Shown here: positions 8,777 to 18,991 of the stretch, piece after piece
Layout: every line of letters starts with the position of its first letter
Position numbering within the stretch: position 1 is the stretch's first letter
NCBI RefSeq assembly: GCF_963921235.1
Contig: NC_086097.1
Coordinates: 61,754,001-61,818,000 of the forward strand
DNA: 64,000 bases
Direction: 5' to 3'
Source of the DNA: Mobula hypostoma
Lineage: Eukaryota
The notes under the pieces: generated by a model
The model's database searches: none
The model's input: only the letters and a program-made list of their open reading frames with translations
What the model was told of the DNA's origin: nothing
Position numbers and translations under genes: made by a program

Positions 8777-9522
8777 AGTGTTATGTTTGTTCTGGATAAA
8801 AGACAAACTTTGCATGGGTTTTCAAATGCTAGCAGATTTATTAACAATCATTATTTCTATTTTAACACTTTAGCACATGCTCCCAGTTCACCAATGTCCT
8901 TCCATTTCCAGCAGAATCGCCTGCATTGCACACTGGGAACTAAAGTTCTTTGTTGTGTACACATATAAAAACAGATCTTCCCCCTTTAAAGCAAAAAAAA
9001 ACACACCTTGTTTCTGTTCACAGGAAAATCTTTTTTTATATATATTATATTATATGTGTATGTGTGTATATATATAAAAAAAATGTGTATGTATAATCAC
9101 TGATTGAAGCATTTCCATGTATCAGTTAGGTTGCCAGTAAACAGCATAGCTGTGGGAGGACTTATTTTATCCATTGAGCTGATCTTTTAGGCTTTCACCT
9201 CAATTTCTTCCAAACAGTGTGCTGGCAACCTTTTTACGTCGGAACTTAGCGCCTCTTTCTTAGCCACTCACAGTATTCAGTTATACTTCATATTTAGACC
9301 TTGTGCTGACTTCTGACACCATGTTATGTTTTTTCTTGATAAAAACACAAATTTTACATGGGCTTTCAGATGCCAGCACATGTATTAACAATTACGGCTT
9401 CTAGCTCTGCACTTAAGCGCGCTCTCCTAGTTCACCAACGCCCTTCTGGTTTCCTGCTGAACTGCCCTGCATTGCATACTGCGAACTGAAGTTCTTTATT
9501 ATGTACACATATAATTACAGAG
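8777..9522 (+). repeat. Diverged ~200-bp direct repeat, copies ~8777-8975 and ~9321-9522
   Basis: Collinear blocks tgttatgttt..gataaaa..catggg.tttca.atgc.agca..tattaacaat..agttcaccaa..ctgcattgca..gaact.aagttcttt.tt.tgtacacatataa..acaga in both copies. Confidence 0.75.
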
Positions 9523-10309
9523 TCAGGACCAGTAAGTTATGGGTCTGCAGCAATGACAGAAATTCACACTAACATTGTTAAATTGGACAGCAAGACTGCA
9601 CAAAGACACATGCTGAACTGATTATCCTACATAACATATTTCTAGATATGTCACATAATTCAAAATATCTCTCCACAGCACCTCTAGAAATCTGAGGCTG
9701 CAGCTGGTGACATATGAAAAATTATTATGAAATTATGAATTGACAAGTCCCGTCAGTACTGATGGCTACTTTGTGAAGGATAGTAGATCTGTTGCTATTG
9801 CGTTAGATATTCACTTTTTGATTTTTTTTGCTAACATTGCTTCCTAAACACAGCATCTTGTAAAATGAAACAGTTGTAAGTAAACTTTCAACAGATTGCT
9901 TAACTTCTGATCATAAATGGAAGTAAGTCTTCAGTTCCTAGAAATATGAATGAAAAGCATTCTTTATAGAACAGCTTTGCAAATAAGCTTTGTATTTTGA
10001 AGATGATCTGTCTGTAAAGAGTCACTGCACCTGCTTTATTATTGCTCAAGGGTAGAGCATAAGACAATGGGCTGTTTAATTTGGGTCGGTTCAAACAGAC
10101 AAGCTGTCTCTTAAGTTGATTAGTTCAAGGAAGCTCATAGAAAGATGGATAATATCATTTAGCATATTAATAACTGATATGTTTATAGTTTGAAATGCTT
10201 ATGTACTCAAAGAAGCTAGCTATACAGCATTAATGGTAGATAGCTAAGATCAATGTCTCCAAAAGATGTTTTTAAACCATTTGTGTTAAAAAGATAACTG
10301 AAGAAATAT

Positions 10310-10502: not shown

Positions 10503-12259
10503 CTGAGGAAACATCACATGCTTGTGAAGTCACTCAAGTGGCTGAAAAGGTATGAGAACAGTTCAGGCTTATTAGGAATGAGTAAAGCAGCATTAAGGAA
10601 CATGGAAGAACTCTAAGCCATTCCTCCAGCTTCAGTCTCTCTGCCTCTTTGGTATGTCTTTTAAGTTTATAGGAATTATACCTGATTCTTGGAAATTGAT
10701 TGCTCTTTTTGATTTATGCTTTATCCTTTGTGTTTAAGAAATGGTTAAATCTTTTGGTTTTGGAAATGATTTGTGTTATAGAAATTGTCTGTAATTTGGA
10801 AATGTTTGGTAATGTTTCAGGATTGAAGATAATGATTTAATGATTCAAGATAAGCTAGAAATCCTCTGTAAGAATTGGGAAGTGTTTAAAATAGAAATCC
10901 TCTGTGAGTTTTAAATGTGTTTTAAGAGACTTGTGTGAATGCAAACGTCTATCATCATCAGGTGCCATGCCCAGTTTGAGCTTTGACTGCCATGGCCCAC
11001 ACACTCCTGTTTCCAATCAAGTGGATCAATTCATTGGTATTCATTTCCAGTTCTCCAGCTGTTGTTTCCATCATCATTTGTCTTTGTCTTCCTCTTGCTT
11101 TCTTCCCTTCAAACTTTCCCATAATTACCGTGCATTCCAACTCCTCTGTCCTAATCACGTCTAATGAAGTTACGTTGCCTTTTCATGATCTCATACATTA
11201 TTTCTCTTTTTGTGCTTGCTCTGTTCATGACATCCTCATTCGATATTCGTTTCGTCCATGATATTCTTTGCATCCTCCTCAAAATCCACATCGCTGCTGC
11301 TTCAATTTGTTTCCTCATGTTACTAGATGTTGTCCAACATTCTGAGCCATATAACATAAATGGATAAACATAACATTTCAGTACTCTGAGTGGGGTTGTC
11401 ATACCTAGTTTAGTGTTGGTCAGTATATTCTTCATTCTCATGAAGGCGTCTTTTGCCATCCCTATTCTTCTTTTGATATCCGTGTCACACCTGCCAACTG
11501 ATGTCACACAGCTTCCTAAGTAGCAAAAGTTCTGTACTTGTTTTATGTCTTCCCCATTTATTTTCAGCCTGCAGATAGGATTCTCCTTTTTTTTGGATAT
11601 TACCATACATTCTGTCTTTTTGTAATTGATAGATAGAACCAATTAAGTTTTGTAGTTCTTCCTCCGTACTTGCAATCAGCACAGTGTCATCCGCAGATCT
11701 AAAATTATTGATGTTTTCACTGCCAGCTTTGATTCCCAAGCTGTCTCTTATTTTTTGTAATATTGTTTCATTGTATACATGAAACAAAGCAGGGGAAAAA
11801 ACATACCCTTGTCTAAGCAGAACAAGTGCTACACATGCCCTTACACTTCCTCTCTCACCACCATTCAGGGCCCCAGACAGTCCTTCCAGATGAGGTGACT
11901 CTTCACCTGTGAGTCAGCTGGGGTGATATACTGCATCCAGTGCTCCCGGTGCGGCCTTCTATATATTGGCGAGACCTGACGTAGGCTGGGAGACCGTTTT
12001 GCTGAACACCTACGCTCTGTCCACCAGAGAAAGCAGGATCTCCCAGTGGCCACACATTTTAATTCCAAGTCCCATTCCCATTCTGATATGTCTATCGACG
12101 GCCTCCTCTACCGTCAAGGTGAAGCCACACTCAGGTTGGAGGAACAACACCTTCTATTCCGTCTGGGTAGCCTCCAACCTGATGGCATGAACACTGACTT
12201 CTCTAACTTCCGTTAATGCCCCACCTCCCCTTCGTACCCCATCCCTTATTTATTTATTA

Positions 12260-12935
12260 TGTAAAGGGGTTTCGACTTTTAAGTTACTGCGGAGGCTAAT
12301 TAAAATGACGTCTTTGTTATGTTAACCTGGGGAATGCGGCTTTATTGTGTTAAACGCTGAGAAAGTTTGCACTAGCACCTTATTTTGGTTTAGAGGATGA
12401 TAAGAAATACGTTATTAACCAATTGGGATAGTTGTTATGGTTTTGGTGTATTTGAAGATACTGTATGCGTGGGGTTTAGGGGCAGAAGGCGGGAGAGCGA
12501 GACAGAGGATGGACGAGGTGCTGTGAGTCCGCTAACGGGGTCGGACCCCGGCGGGACATTCGGCGAGGAAACGGAGACGGACTCGTGTGGAGCGTATGGT
12601 CCCAGGCGGCTGGTCGAGGTGGTCCGAGGGGGTCGCAGGGTGAAGAAGAAGGTCCTTGAGCTCCAACGGTTTTGTGCACGAAGAGATTGAACTTTGATAA
12701 ATGTGGCGCCTTTTATTTTCCTTTTATATTTTATTCTCTTTTAAATATATAGTTCCAGTAATATCTATAAACTGTATATCATTTAATTGCATCTGGTGTC
12801 TTGTCTGTTATTTGGGCGGGGTGGGGTACCTCACACAGCATCCACACAAACGAATTACCCAGTTTGGCGGGGCTGAGGCTGTTTCCCTAGATGACAGCGA
12901 GCCGAGCGACCCTGAGGGTGGCCAGGGGGGCTACA
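12260..12935 (+). repeat. 5' LTR
   Basis: TGTAAAGGGG...GGGGGGCTACA; by eye a few percent diverged from the 3' LTR, plus two reciprocal indels. Confidence 0.95.
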
Positions 12936-12938
12936 TTG

Positions 12939-12957
12939 TGGGGGCTTTGTCCGGGAT
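12939..12957 (+). promoter_or_regulatory. tRNA-Pro-type primer binding site
   Basis: TGGGGGCTTTGTCCGGGAT versus canonical tRNA-Pro PBS TGGGGGCTCGTCCGGGAT, 3 nt after the 5' LTR. Confidence 0.8.
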
Positions 12958-13179
12958 GCTTGAGTCTGCTGGTATGCTGTGTGGGTGCCCTGTTTAAATC
13001 TGTAATGTGTGTCTCTGTGGGTTATTTGCTGTTGATTGCTGTATGCGTTGTGGGTGCAGTCTTTGTTCGAGTTCAGGCTGGCATTGACGAGTTGGAGGTG
13101 GCACTCGGGGCTGTCCATGCAGTTGGGAGACAGAGGAAAGAATGGTCTGATTTGGAGGTAGAGTCTGCGAATAAATGTT

Positions 13180-14290
13180 CTAGCTCTGGCAGGCTCCGCC
13201 TGGCACTTGGGATATGTCCACCCCAAGAGGGGCGGAGACTAGCGAGACGTGGGCGGAGCGGATTCTCAGTTGTTAGATGAGTGGCAGTGCTCGGTTGAGG
13301 GAGAGCGACAGGGATTGGTTGAAAGTTTGAGTAGGCGGGCCCGTGACGGTGTTAGAGCTGTCAGGTTCACTTACACCGTAGTGACAGCTGTCAGTTATTT
13401 GAAAGAGGGGGGGAAGTTTTCAGTGTGTCTTCTCTGGCGAGGAGGGCGGCTAAATTGCTTGCAGTGCCAGGGGTATTATTTCAGGGGATCAGTTGTTCAG
13501 CTGATCAGAGAGGTGTCGGGAAACTTAGTGGAGGCCCAGTGGGGGAACGGCTTGAGGTCTCTGGGGAAGCACGTTCCCAGCAATGTACCAATGAACTTCC
13601 GAAAGGAAAAGACCCTATTCCTGAAGGCTTAGAGGGGCCACGCCCTAGGGTGTCGCTATGGATAGAGGGAAGCGATGCTAAAGCTATTCTCGGCCCCGGG
13701 GCACAGATCAAGTTGTTGTACAGTTCGTTTTACAACCGGTGTCTGAAGCATTTATCCTTGACAACCGCAAGGGCACCGGAGACTTTGGGTACCAGTGGCA
13801 GTAGTTATCCAGAAGACGATGATTGGTTAATGACCCTGGAGTTCATGAAGGCATTTTCTGGGCACCCAGCGTGTCGAGTTGCTTCTGAGGACGTGTGTAG
13901 CAGCCTTGAGCCGGTACCGAATTTAAACGAGACCCAGCGGTGGTACGGCCTGGGGAAAGTAGCTGAGGGTGAGACCCTCTTAGTAGATGCTCCGAACTAC
14001 CACGAGGGAGGGGAGTTGACCGCTGAAGACACTTCAGTGAGAGAGAGGTCGCGGCAACTGGACCCTAGCGGCGTGGAAGATGAAGGCAGCGTGTGTGTGG
14101 ATTCTGAGGAGGGCGGCTGTTGAACTGAAGATGGCCTTTACTAGTTCCCTAGGATTCTTCCGATCCGAAAAGATGCCCAAGGGCATATCCGGAGCCCCTG
14201 CATCCTTCCCGCGGGGCATGAGGAAGACCATGGGGGAAATGAAGGTGTGTGGAGTTTTGACGTATGTGGGTGACTGCCTAGAGCTTGGAT
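13180..14290 (+). pseudogene. Decayed Gypsy gag (PNMA-like capsid), aspartic protease and RT fragment
   Basis: [22 protein letters not shown] (PNMA/Ma-like gag); [24 protein letters not shown] (protease, catalytic DTG lost); AFTSSLGFFRSEKMPKGISGAPASF...VLTYVGD (RT, YxDD lost). Confidence 0.8.
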
Positions 14291-14450
14291 TCGCCTGGGG
14301 GAGGCGAGGTGAGTGGCTGAGCCCGGGCGACCGAAGCGAAGTGTCAAATGTGGAGGAGTTTTTGGCCGGTGGAGTTTGGTGCAATGTGAGGAAAATGACC
14401 CGACATACCAGTTGAACTTCCTGGTGTTGGGACAGACGGTGGTGGACCGG

Positions 14451-15080
14451 GGGATGGAAACTCAGGTCGTCAATTTGAATGAGACACAGAGAAGAGAGGG
14501 AATTTGCACCGCACTGCGGTCATATACTGATGAATTAATCCAGCGAGAAGAAACAATGACCCGCCTTCGAAGGGATCAGCAGAAACTCAAGACGTCGATT
14601 CAGGACAGATTGGAAGACTTGCAAGTTGGGGAAGATCAAGGAAGTGTTCTGACTAAGGTCAACAGAAAACCGAGAGCCCAGGGAGGGGAGTTTGACTACA
14701 CTCCCGAGGAGGTAAAGAAATGGAGGACAGATCTCGGGAAAGGGAGGCGGACGCTTGAAAGGAACCTGAAGATGCCCTATCGCAAGTTTAAATGAAGTGG
14801 AAAAACTGAAAGTTGACCTGGAAGACGTCATGAGGAAGAAACAACCGGAGGCTGAACATTCTTTAACTGCTGCTTTTCAGGTCAGGGTGGAAGAAGCTGG
14901 TGGGGTAACTGCATCCCAGGTTGAGATGGCCAGGAACCCTGAGTCAGAACTGCGGAGGCTGTGGCGAGAGTTGAAGGAGTCCCCGAAGAAGCTGACGTCT
15001 CGACTGCAGGAGGCTGAAGGGGTAGCCCCGGCTAAATGTTTCAGTTTGGAGAAACGTAAACAGCAGCTACCGATCGAGGG
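14451..15080 (+). pseudogene. Captured intronless sarcomeric myosin II heavy-chain rod fragments (MYH16-like)
   Basis: About 88 aa align without gaps to the recalled myosin S2 rod (LEDLQVGEDQGSVLTK vs [36 protein letters not shown] vs [20 protein letters not shown]). Further blocks: [14 protein letters not shown] vs LEEAGGATSVQIEM, and [24 protein letters not shown] vs KKLAQRLQEAE..AKCSSLEKTKHRL. One frameshift at ~14775. Confidence 0.85.
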
Positions 15081-15563
15081 AATGAGGAAGGATACGGATT
15101 CGAAGGATGATGTGCTGCACATGTGGAACATGCAGCCTTTCGCTAACTTCCCCTTGATTGAGGAAGAGACTTTTGGCTCTTCTCCCACTGAGTCAGGTGT
15201 AGTGGGGAGGGCTAGCTGTGGGCAGTCTGAGTTACGGCAGGATCAGAAAGGAGGAGGGGAGGGGCCCCGGACACGGGACAGGGGGCTCCGAGCTGTAGTG
15301 GCCTGAGTGAGAGAGGAGTTGGCAAGCAGGCTCGAGGTATCCCTGGTAGTGTCTGAGCCTTTTGGGTTTAGGTGAGGGGGTACGGAGGTCTCGGAGGGTT
15401 AAGAAGCTCCCAGATAGGTTGGCCTATGTAGCGCCCGTGGGACGGGAGTAAAGTCCACTGTTTGGGGAGCACTCTCACTGTGTGTATCTGTGTATGTGTG
15501 TGTTGTGTGTCTGCAGGACTGGTTGGCGAGTTATTTAGAAGACATGAGGACATGACTTTATTT

Positions 15564-15576
15564 GGTGGGGGGAGAG
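15564..15576 (+). promoter_or_regulatory. Polypurine tract
   Basis: GGTGGGGGGAGAG immediately upstream of the 3' LTR TG. Confidence 0.8.
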
Positions 15577-16233
15577 TGTAAAGGGGTTTCGACTTTTAAG
15601 TTCCTGCGGAGGCTAATTAAAATGGCGTCTTTGTTATGTTAATCTGGGGAATGCGGCTTTGTTGTGTTAAACGCTGGGAGAGTTTGCACTGGCAGCTTAT
15701 TTTGGTTTAGAGGGTGATAAGAAATACGTTATTAACGAATTGGGATAGTTGTTATGGTTTTGATGTATTTGAAGATACTGTATGCGCGGGGTTTTGGGGC
15801 AGAAGGCGGGAGAGCGAGACAGAGGATGGACGAGGGACATTCGGCGAGGAAACGGAGACGGACTCGTGTGGAGCGTATGGTCGACCACCGTTGTTGGTCC
15901 CAGGCGGCCGGTCGAGGTGGTCCGAGGGGGTCGCAGGGTGAAGAAGAAGGTCCTTGAGCTCCAATGGTTTTGTGCACGAAGAGATTGAACTTTGATAAGT
16001 GTGGCGCCTTTTATTTTCCTTTTATATCTTATTCTCTTTTAAATATATAGTTCCAGTAATATCTATAAACTGTATATCATTTAATTGCATCTGGTGTATT
16101 GTCTGTTATTTGGGCGGGGTGGGGTACCTCACAGAGCATTCACACAAAGGAATTACCCAGTCTGGCGGGGCCGAGGCTGTTTCCCTAGACGACAGCGAGC
16201 CGAGCGACCCTGAGGGTGGCCAGGGGGGCTACA
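15577..16233 (+). repeat. 3' LTR
   Basis: Direct repeat of 12260-12935, followed by TSD ATTA. Confidence 0.95.
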
Positions 16234-18991
16234 ATTATTATTTCTTTTTTTTCCCCCTTTTTTTCTCTCTTTTTTCTCCCTCTGTCCCTCTCACTATAAC
16301 TCCTTGCCCATCCTCTGGGCTTGCCCCCCCCCACCTTTCTTTCTCCCCTGGCCTCCCGTCCCATGATCCTCTCCCTTCTCCAGCCTGGTTTCCCTTTTGC
16401 CAATCAACTTTCCACCCCTCCCCTCCTGTCTTCTCCTATCATTTTGGATCTCCCCCTTCCCCTTCCACTTTCAAATCTCTTACTATCTCTTCTTTCAGTT
16501 AGTCTTGACTAAGGGTCCTGGCCCAAAACGTCGATTGTACCTTTTCCTATAGATGCTGCCAGGCCTACTGTGTTCCACCAGCATTCTCTTGATTTTCGTA
16601 AACTGACTCAATTCTCCATCTATTCTTACAGTGGCAGTTTGTTCCCAGTACAGATTTCTGATTAGGTGGAGGTCTTTCGAATCTAGATCTAGAGCTTCCT
16701 GTAATATTTCAAATAAATTATTGTGCCTCACTTTATCAAATGCTTTTGTGTAGTCAATAAAACAAACAAACAAATCTCTTTGCACTTGAATATCTCATTC
16801 TGATAGTATCCTTAACATCAATATCGCACTTATTGTACCTTTGTCTTTCACAAAACCACGTTGTTCTTTACCTATTTCAGCTTGTAGTTTACTTTTAGCT
16901 CTTGTCATCAAAATTCTTAGAGTATCTAGTGATATGACTCATTATTAGGAATAATAATCCAAGTTTATTAGAAAGAGTGATAAATACTGATTTTTTCATA
17001 TCTTCTGGTACTATTCCAGTCTCATAAATGTCATTGATTAAATCAGTAAGTTTTTCAATTCCATAATCTTCAAGGGCAATAATTTGTTCTATTACTAATT
17101 CATCAGGACCTGTTGCCTTTCCTTTTTTCATCTTATTTATAGCATTACGAACTTCAGATTTTAAAATACTTGGACCTTCAATGTTCTTCTTAATTTCTGG
17201 CTTTTCGCCTCAATCATATTCTAACAATTCCTGAATATACTCAGTCCATCTGTTCATAATCTCATCTTTTTCCATGGTAATGGTACCGTCCTTTGCTTTC
17301 AAACATCCACCTGAAGAACAGAGGAGTTTTTTACTAGTGATATTCTTGATTTGTAGATTTACCCTTTTTGGATCAGTAATAGGGATTCTTTCTAGTTGCT
17401 CACATTCCTGATTTAACCAGTCTTCTTTGGTTTTTTGACACAGGCTTTTAACTTTTTTATCTAAGGATGTATATTCTATAGGATTTGCTTTCTTCAGTCT
17501 CCTTTCTTCCAGTAGATTTCTGACTTAATTTGTCATCCATTTATCCTTTGTGCTTTTTTTCTTTTTTAGGAATCACTGACTTTGCTGATTCTACCAAGGC
17601 ATCTTTCAGAGAGTTAAACTTCATTCTACATGATTGCTATCATTTTCAACAGATTCTATTTCTAGACTTGGAAATCTGTTCCTTACTTCAATTGTAAATT
17701 TTTGACTTAAGTTTCCATCTTTAATTAATTGCGAGTAGTCAAGGGATTGTTCAGGTTTTTGCTTATTTAGTTTTTTAAGTTTTACTTTGACATGACATAT
17801 TACTGGTTTATGGTCACTATTATAATCTGTACCTGGATATGTTTCACATTGAGTCACTGAGTTTCTAAATCTTTGGATTATAGTTATCAAGTCAATTTGA
17901 TTTTGGGTGTTATTACCTGGACTCTTCCAGGTCCACAGGTGTCTTGGATGGTTTTTAAAATAGGTATTCAATATGACCTGATTATTCATCTTGCATCATT
18001 CTACCCATTTCTCACCTCTTTCATTTCTTTCCCCTAGTCCAAATTTTCCTATGGTATTTCCATTAGCACCTTGTCCTACTTTAGCATTTATATCTCCCAT
18101 GACAATAACCATATCTTGAGATTTGCATCCAAGATTTGCTTGTTCAAGCTGTTCATCGACTTTATATCCTCATTTGTTCCATCTACTGTTGGTGCATATA
18201 CCTGTATAATTGCTAAATCAAATGGTTGTCCTGTGAATCTAACAAGAAGCACTCTTTCTGATATTGCCCAATGTCCTAAAACACTTTTTGCCATGTTTTC
18301 ATCCTTAAGAATTCCTACTCCATTAGCATGGGATGTTCCACAAGAATAAATTAGTGTTTTAATAGTATTCTAACATGTTCCAGCACCTATCCAACGAACT
18401 TCACTAATTGCCATGATGCTAATTTTTAGTCTTTCCATTTCATTTATCACACTGTCCAATTTTCTTGCTTGATATAGGGTTCTTACATTCCAATTCCAAT
18501 TCCAATTCATAATTTTCTTTTGTGTTACAGGTTTCCCCCATTATCTGAAGGTACAGCGTTCCTATGAAATGATTCGTAAGTCGGAATGTTGTAAAGTGAA
18601 TAAGCAATTACCATTTATTAATATGGGAAAAATTTTTGAGCGGTCCCAGACCCAAAAAATAACCTACAAAATCATGCCAAATAACACATAAAACCTAAAA
18701 TAACAGTAACATTTAGTAAAAGCAGGAATGATACGATAAATACACAGCCCATATAAAGTAGAAATACTTTTCTGCAGCACTGTCTAGCGCAGCAAAAATC
18801 TCGCAGAAGCGCTCACGGCAGAAACACGGCGCAAGCACTCTCAATAGAAACAGTCTGTCTGGTAACCTTTAAGCTATGAAGCTGCCAAATCATACCAAAT
18901 AACACATAAAAATACACAGCCTATATAAAATGGAAATAATGTACGTACAGTGTAGTTTCACTTACTGGAATCGGGAAGATTCCAATAAACT

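Follow-up and report, generated by a model that had tools for sequence, protein, structure and literature searches.

The locus and the element

The window analysed here, a stretch of 64,000 nucleotides from Mobula hypostoma (contig NC_086097.1, positions 61,754,001 to 61,818,000 of the forward strand), contains at 12260-16233 a dead copy of a non-autonomous Ty3/Gypsy LTR retrotransposon, within which bases 14454-15078 derive from a sarcomeric myosin rod. The element is bounded by direct repeats, one of 676 bp and one of 657 bp, that start with TGTA and end with TACA. The initial annotation had described two LTRs with a target-site duplication, a primer binding site (PBS) and a polypurine tract; it is borne out by an ATTA on both sides and by the tract GGTGGGGGGAGAG adjoining the 3' LTR, and the PBS-like site TGGGGGCTTTGTCCGGGA is a candidate PBS. 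The features are listed below; myosin residues are numbered on P0159, the MYH16-like protein of the chimaera Callorhinchus, which serves as reference for the cargo, and pol residues on an autonomous relative.

12256-12259, plus strand: target-site duplication ATTA, 5' copy, identical to 16234-16237
12260-12935, plus strand: 5' LTR, 676 bp, TGTA...TACA, K2P distance 0.042 from the 3' LTR
12938-12955, plus strand: PBS-like site TGGGGGCTTTGTCCGGGA, just 3' of the 5' LTR
12956-14127, plus strand: degenerate gag/protease region, 71-73% DNA identity to autonomous relatives over 13508-13753, no Pfam match
14128-14289, plus strand: what is left of reverse transcriptase, corresponding to residues 238-291 of the relative's pol (50% identity at E 3e-11 in tblastn)
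14290-14453, plus strand: putative residual reverse transcriptase motif D/E and RNase H scraps (ENDPTYQLNFLVLGQTVV, corresponding to pol ERNYPTHKLEFLALKWAVV), from comparison by eye with old copies and autonomous pol
14454-14513, plus strand: MYH16-derived block, ~907-928, followed by a 120-base subfamily-specific deletion (kept in the 'long' subfamily)
14514-14774, plus strand: MYH16-derived block, 969-1055, gapless, 36% identity, E 2e-11
14775-14781, plus strand: frameshift private to this copy, one extra base (at 14775-14778 the contigs of three sequencing runs are one base shorter)
14782-14883, plus strand: MYH16-derived block, ~1057-1100, with a 9-residue deletion (alignment)
14884-14967, plus strand: MYH16-derived block RVEEAGG...LWR, ~1143-1170 (alignment)
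14968-15078, plus strand: MYH16-derived block ELKESPKKL...KQQLPIE, 1379-1418, 55% identity over 40 residues
15079-15306, plus strand: remnant of the C-terminal pol tail (..DSDVWYLLPF..); pol 1090-1136 matches 15058-15198 and lies behind integrase in the autonomous relative
15563-15576, plus strand: polypurine tract GGTGGGGGGAGAG, the same tract as in the autonomous relative
15577-16233, plus strand: 3' LTR, 657 bp, from the direct-repeat comparison
16234-16237, plus strand: target-site duplication ATTA, 3' copy, identical to 12256-12259

The LTR pair is 90% identical with one indel block included, and its K2P distance of 0.042 (596 sites outside this block) corresponds to ~10-42 million years at assumed substitution rates of 0.5-2e-9 per site per year; the insertion would date back roughly 10-40 million years. 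The PBS-like site is common to this element and the autonomous relative and is a putative PBS by its position; no tRNA gene lies within the 64-kb window. Of pol, only residues 238-291 and 1090-1136 are left, the former ending at 14289, in agreement with the earlier placing of the end of the reverse transcriptase remnant at ~14290. No Pfam family, including RVT_1 and other pol domains, was found for the frames 13356-14123 or 14041-14415, and one protein of the family described below (P0130) matches RVT_1 at E 0.012, under the Pfam cut-off. Frames for LINE-type reverse transcriptase and endonuclease lie on both sides of the element, at 11151-11913 and 16495-18540 of the window, both on the minus strand, so that the element sits in a repeat-rich stretch.

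The myosin-derived stretch

Translated, bases 14451-14795 align without gaps over 90 residues to the Myosin-4 entry of the PDB (residues 976-1065, E 1e-6), and the same frame matches Myosin-7 at the same register. This register is unique, scoring 32 bits compared with at most 7 bits for every other along a 1000-residue rod, which goes beyond the generic similarity of coiled coils. Against P0159, window residues 22-108 correspond to 969-1055, that is 87 residues without a gap at 36% identity (E 2e-11), in line with the gapless alignment of ~88 amino acids reported initially. The second frame matches MYH7 over 1361-1425 (E 0.003) and P0159 from 1059 onward as well as over 1379-1418 at 55% across 40 residues. 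The motifs behind the frameshift had been described as lying in rod order, and the myosin blocks of this copy are indeed collinear. The frameshift itself, at ~14775-14778, is private to the window copy, since the contigs of three sequencing runs lack one base there; parts of the stretch are carried by 12 runs, none of them recorded as RNA, and the contigs indicate presence only.

The identity of the window copy to any myosin is just ~30-36%, and there is no motor domain, neck or full rod, only rod residues ~888-1418 with gaps amid pol remnants. The profile check that had been proposed for the window frames gave no support, as Pfam Myosin_tail_1 stayed below every threshold both on these frames and on the proteins P0001-P0004, which likewise gave no reverse transcriptase family; only P0137, a fragment of a true myosin, passes the gathering score (60 bits). 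A further short match, NDPTYQL, was rejected as myosin and equals the RNase H motif ERNYPT.KLEFLAL.

A high-copy family in rays

The capture is more than a single local event, as the copy number shows: the window holds one dead copy out of many. A query of 701 bases around the cargo gave 863 first-look candidates in the Mobula hypostoma genome (3.48 Gb), and each of the 40 that were scored matches along its entire length at 95-100% identity. With protein queries taken from three subfamilies there were 1325, 1313 and 1586 first-look candidates, and every scored one matched (141 of 141, 150 of 150 and 143 of 143, respectively). The resulting family size of at least 863-1586 candidate loci, only part of them scored, is a lower bound. 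A 2.6-kb interior aligned whole at 92-94% in all nine loci compared from the 'short' subfamily, to which the window copy belongs. Among four copies whose ends were read, three have their own 4-bp target-site duplication (ATTA, CTGG and CATA) and the fourth adjoins another copy; the copies thus appear to be independent insertions. At one locus (L069 with L003, C50:41743808-41748407) the 5' LTR follows immediately on another copy's polypurine tract, and therefore two elements share an LTR in tandem.

The 'long' subfamily retains 120 bases (~40 rod residues) that are absent from the 'short' subfamily at window position 14513, and in general the subfamilies delete differing parts of the cargo. Annotated family proteins come from Mobula birostris, M. 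hypostoma, Hemitrygon akajei and Hypanus sabinus, with Narcine bancroftii added by the tree described below, so that the distribution among annotated proteins takes in two stingrays and an electric ray besides the Mobula rays. Automatic NCBI names of such copies include 'myosin heavy chain, skeletal muscle-like' and 'putative uncharacterized protein MYH16'. Gene models named 'myosin heavy chain ...-like' or 'putative uncharacterized protein MYH16' in at least five ray species are copies of the element, and counts of myosin genes are inflated by them. One model, P0126 ('myosin heavy chain, striated muscle-like'), combines an element frame at C55:80570951-80571403 with an exon 37 kb downstream (C55:80607732-80608088) and represents an exonised copy or else an artefact of the annotation.

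The cargo is of MYH16 type

The preference for MYH16 over MYH7, which had been based on a few residues, is supported by the comparisons made here. A MYH16-type myosin is the best match for 8 of 11 family proteins (the exceptions are P0004, P0128 and P0129), and for the family member P0139 33 of 42 best matches are named myosin-16 or myosin-16-like. P0003, the protein of a less deleted copy, reaches E 1.5e-10 in a search against 1.84 billion representatives and 4e-23 in a pairwise comparison. The motifs LKMT, SLNEME, K(V/I)DLEEV, KKKELEI and RKIKE(Y/H)QA are common to the family and MYH16 and absent in MYH7.

The phylogeny of the fragment that had been called for was computed as a maximum-likelihood tree of 32 rows, with three very short family rows left out and the host's own MYH16 rod not among the rows. 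The family forms one clade (support 100/98), which groups with MYH16 of lamprey and gnathostomes (99/97) to the exclusion of eight other sarcomeric myosins. The branching order inside that group is without resolution, and the family rows are odd in composition and fill less than half of the columns. As judged from these alignments, the cargo is of the MYH16 type rather than MYH7, MYH7B or a fast myosin.

Old copies, an autonomous relative and the original structure

In copies that have decayed less, 200-250 residues can be aligned to MYH16 at 42-64% identity. In the old copies L041, L042 and L043 the cargo matches P0159 contiguously, at 42-48% over 883-1133 and at 64% over 67 more residues, and upstream of it these copies have a fuller reverse transcriptase and a complete RNase H ending in ...YEFSLKYRPGSRNIDVDVLSRQVPEG. 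Their order is pol 121-572, MYH16 883-1133/1175, then pol 1090/1100-1143 and 1374-1452. With the RNase H piece as query ~2000 candidates were obtained, some of them inside open frames of 1000-1450 amino acids; the relatives found are just ~70% identical to the family in RNase H. One such autonomous relative, L065 (C40:64394001-64404000), encodes a gag of 370 and a pol of 1453 amino acids, the latter in the order protease, reverse transcriptase, RNase H and integrase, with YLDD at 283, DASH at 456, ADALSR at 565, the integrase zinc finger (HHCC) at ~719-757 and the tail ..DSDVWYLLPF.. at 1108. It is flanked by a 4-bp target-site duplication and has its PBS-like site, TGGGGGCTACCGTCCTGGA, in the same place as TGGGGGCTTTGTCCGGGA of the window element; in common with the family it has this site, the TGTA..TACA ends and a polypurine tract with the upstream CATGAGG.CATGACTTT. 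The last part of the L065 pol, at ~8990-9640, is made up of tandem repeats with an 84-bp unit (GEGVAEPPVLQPGL...), and this array has two open frames and is also open on the opposite strand.

Since RNase H, cargo and pol tail follow each other in the old copies, the cargo replaced integrase. The original structure was gag-protease-reverse transcriptase-RNase H, then MYH16 ~888-1180 and ~1385-1418, then the C-terminal tail of pol. The earlier proposal that the capture had replaced RNase H and integrase is upheld for integrase and fails for RNase H, which the old copies keep up to ADALSR; in the subfamily of the window copy RNase H and most of the reverse transcriptase were lost by later deletion.

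A spliced origin and the joins of the cargo

According to a review (PMC6402096), the human MYH16 gene extends over 68 kb with 42 predicted exons, and MYH16 occurs in the jaw muscle of sharks. A host without MYH16 was considered and rejected, as the orthologue was found on C36 (112719797-112766769, minus strand). Its exons are 61-90% identical to P0159 apart from one exon at 52%; for the N-terminal exons the values are 71-86% (again one at 52%) versus 41-72% for paralogues. The exon for residues 826-887 lies at 112733199-112733375 and that for 1181-1244 at 112722913-112723104. In this gene, the 879 coding bases of the captured interval are spread over 10.1 kb, whereas the interval is contiguous in the old copies, and therefore the cargo came from spliced RNA, as the initial annotation had suggested in proposing capture at the mRNA level. 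No intron sequence was found in the cargo of the copies compared.

A fast-type paralogue, a host myosin gene on C68, served to map the exon junctions of the captured interval, which lie at 903/904, 984/985, 1043/1044, 1092/1093 and 1123/1124 and further at 1252/1253, 1294/1295, 1334/1335 and 1400/1401 (all in P0138 numbering). The long and old copies cross the first five without interruption. The expectation that the cargo crosses exon junctions is thus confirmed on the paralogue map, while in MYH16 itself only the junction 887|888 was read. On the same contig, at least eight genes for sarcomeric myosin heavy chains form a tandem cluster with ~75 kb spacing on both strands (C68:15300000-15910000).

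At the 5' end, the host MYH16 exon ends in ...LLLQVQA (SQEKNDLLLQVQA) followed by gtaagt, and the cargo of the old copies starts with E-Q-E-S-R-A-D, which corresponds to E-Q-D-N-L-S-D of MYH16, the first residues of the next exon. The sequence 5' of this point is still alignable to autonomous pol, so that the 5' end of the cargo falls within about one codon of the 887|888 junction. The join reads GAC GAG GAG CAG GAG in the chimera compared with GCC GAG GAG TGG in the relative, and there is no GT donor at this place in the autonomous relative, which is ~65-70% identical there by eye. The 3' join, at ~1418 of P0159 (~1434-1436 of P0138), lies inside the paralogue exon 1400-1466. Within the cargo, the join RRELEES|KKKL, which removes residues ~1181-1384, is present in all subfamilies. 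Its edges lie in two similar (D/E)LEE(A/T) motifs and only the 3' edge is near a junction on the paralogue map, and for these reasons it is taken to be a jump between short repeats. The remaining deletions of the cargo vary among the subfamilies and likewise have their edges at repeated LEE-type motifs inside exons, which speaks against attributing all gaps in the rod to exon skipping.

Is the cargo used?

Between subfamilies, NG86 dN/dS is 0.4-0.55 for the cargo and ~1.2-1.5 for the tail, and the values for the cargo are equally low within subfamilies. Constraint on the cargo as read from these ratios was rejected after a permutation that preserves the mutation spectrum, in which the same base changes were moved to random like sites. 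Fixed differences were taken between seven P0126-type copies and 22 long and short copies, at a frequency of at least 80% in each group. There are 42 such differences, 13 synonymous and 29 not, distributed 15:15:12 over the codon positions, and the null expectation for the synonymous count is 13.9 +/- 2.9 (P = 0.67). Depending on the reference copy, 40-45 differences are obtained, 13-15 of them synonymous and 26-30 not, with a null of 13.5-14.8 (P = 0.49-0.67), and the pol tail gives the same outcome as the cargo. An MK-type test between the short and long subfamilies showed nothing and has little power, with 17 + 4 fixed differences, 4 of them in the cargo. A core of 262 codons is open in 13 of 29 copies, and most of the others have one stop. 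As synonymous sites are not enriched and many frames are broken, the cargo decays as a passenger; it is, on these comparisons of copies, without detectable function and appears to drift.

Proposed history and alternative explanations

Very probably, a Gypsy chimera that lacked integrase and carried MYH16 cargo founded a high-copy family in rays, in which the cargo is a passenger. In the founder, the integrase part of pol (~573-1097 of the autonomous relative) would have been exchanged for ~330 codons of MYH16 rod from a spliced mRNA, with ~888-1180 joined to ~1385-1418. The chimera would have kept its LTR ends, PBS, polypurine tract and 5' region, and therefore the proteins of related autonomous elements could have copied it in trans; such mobilisation by autonomous relatives would be the plain reading of the shared sequences. 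It would then have multiplied to more than 1000 copies and split into subfamilies, which would have lost more of the reverse transcriptase, RNase H and cargo by internal deletions.

This account leaves little room for three other explanations of the cargo. That the coiled coil resembles myosin by chance, without myosin ancestry, would fit the lack of a Pfam Myosin_tail_1 match and the low-complexity heptad composition, yet a single rod register scores, the blocks are collinear, the less decayed copies extend the match to MYH16 over 200-250 residues and the tree places them with MYH16 at 99/97, so that this reading has practically no chance of being correct. Capture at the DNA level, with a myosin segment of the genome or a processed pseudogene already present as the source instead of mRNA taken up by the element, is extremely unlikely. 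It could appeal to other intron-free rod pieces in the genome, but those cover 514-992 of the Pfam profile as opposed to ~40-580 for the cargo, and the cargo lies in frame between pol pieces within one LTR pair and a 4-bp target-site duplication, is without intron sequence and has its 5' edge at an exon edge. The pieces in question are intron-free rod stretches with internal stops, which match Myosin_tail_1 514-992 at C18:48745523-48746731, C50:30689110-30689772, C184:304888-305403, C157:172388-172903 and C21:138691427-138692201; they may be processed pseudogenes or other captures. Very unlikely, too, is a myosin coiled coil in use, kept by selection either to multimerise the protein of the element or in the role of a host gene. 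In favour of use, the open frames of many copies are long (up to 824-836 amino acids), the dN/dS of the cargo is low, the cargo is 55-59% identical in amino acids between old and young subfamilies where the reverse transcriptase part is 30-46% identical, and NCBI gene models are built on copies; against this, fixed differences show no enrichment at third positions or synonymous sites when the spectrum of mutations is preserved, the 16 broken copies among 29 are about as many as neutral decay gives, the subfamilies delete differing parts of the cargo and the MK-type test gave no signal, albeit with little power.

How the joins were made is a more balanced question. The initial annotation invoked template switching by reverse transcriptase, which suits the 3' join: lying inside an exon, it would be a non-homologous switch of this kind. 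For the 5' join, which falls exactly at an exon start, splicing fits better, and it probably arose in this way, as in retroviral oncogene capture, from a spliced read-through transcript of an element that would have resided in the preceding MYH16 intron. The alternative for this end is a second template switch at the short GAGGAG/GAGCAG similarity. Both joins would then be microsimilarity-dependent switches between co-packaged MYH16 mRNA and element RNA, and the coincidence with the exon edge would be due to chance, a reading that is doubtful but has a real claim. In its favour are the short GAG-rich stretch common to the chimera and the relative, the lack of a GT donor in the latter, the internal deletions of the cargo at repeated LEE motifs and the microsimilarity at fusion points in all animal cases covered by the part of Tan et al. 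(2016; PMC5131818) considered here. It has to contend with a cargo start within about one codon of a junction that was read in host MYH16 itself, given that exons are ~30-130 codons long and a random break would fall there about once in 20 by our estimate. A fuller version of the splicing account can be offered tentatively and is quite possible: a Gypsy element in an intron of a ray MYH16 gene gave rise to a read-through transcript that was spliced from the end of RNase H to the next exon, RNA recombination supplied the 3' end and the chimera became a batoid repeat family. On this oncogene-type account, activity of the family would have begun before electric rays and stingrays separated and would have lasted until some tens of millions of years ago.

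Comparison with known systems

Capture of host mRNA by a vertebrate LTR retrotransposon can found a long-lived family of more than 1000 copies. Such a capture can lead to more than one dead retrocopy, even when the cargo is of no use, and the exon-edge 5' join is a testable trace of how captures begin. The statement that no myosin-carrying LTR family had been described stands as far as the literature search made here extends, which found no paper on a myosin-carrying retrotransposon; it does not stand for the databases, where NCBI names already read myosin-like or MYH16.

In acute transforming retroviruses, an exon boundary marks the 5' join and the 3' join falls inside an exon; one of the replication genes has been replaced, so that a helper is needed. 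The model of Swain and Coffin reportedly explains such oncogene transduction by read-through, splicing and RNA recombination. The ray family resembles these viruses in its 5' join at an exon start, its 3' join in an exon (the latter from the paralogue map) and its need of a helper. In contrast to them, the carrier is of Gypsy type without env, the cargo is a structural coiled coil without sign of function and the outcome was germ-line spread, not tumours.

A further comparison is with the LTR-mediated retrocopies of flies, mosquito, zebrafish, chicken and mammals, whose fusion points show microsimilarity and which are now and then retroposed a second time (Tan et al., 2016, Genome Res 26:1663, PMC5131818). 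As in the ray family, two LTRs enclose an intron-free piece of host mRNA that lies within a discontinuous LTR retrotransposon; template switching by reverse transcriptase was proposed for them, and the chimera can be transcribed and retroposed again (PMC5131818). However, the retrocopies described there are young and occupy one or two insertion sites, while the ray family has more than 1000 copies, is divided into subfamilies and extends over several ray families, and its 5' join lies at an exon edge and not just at a microsimilarity. The maize element Bs1, as treated in the same part of that study, is likewise a non-autonomous LTR element with host gene fragments and switch points common to all copies, but is present in 1-5 copies per Zea species (Tan et al., 2016, PMC5131818) as against at least 863-1586 candidate loci of the ray family. 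Taken together, the family belongs to a known kind, that of LTR-mediated retrocopies and Bs1, and is unusual in copy number and age: the event was of an ordinary sort, its outcome was unusually successful and its 5' join is informative about the mechanism.
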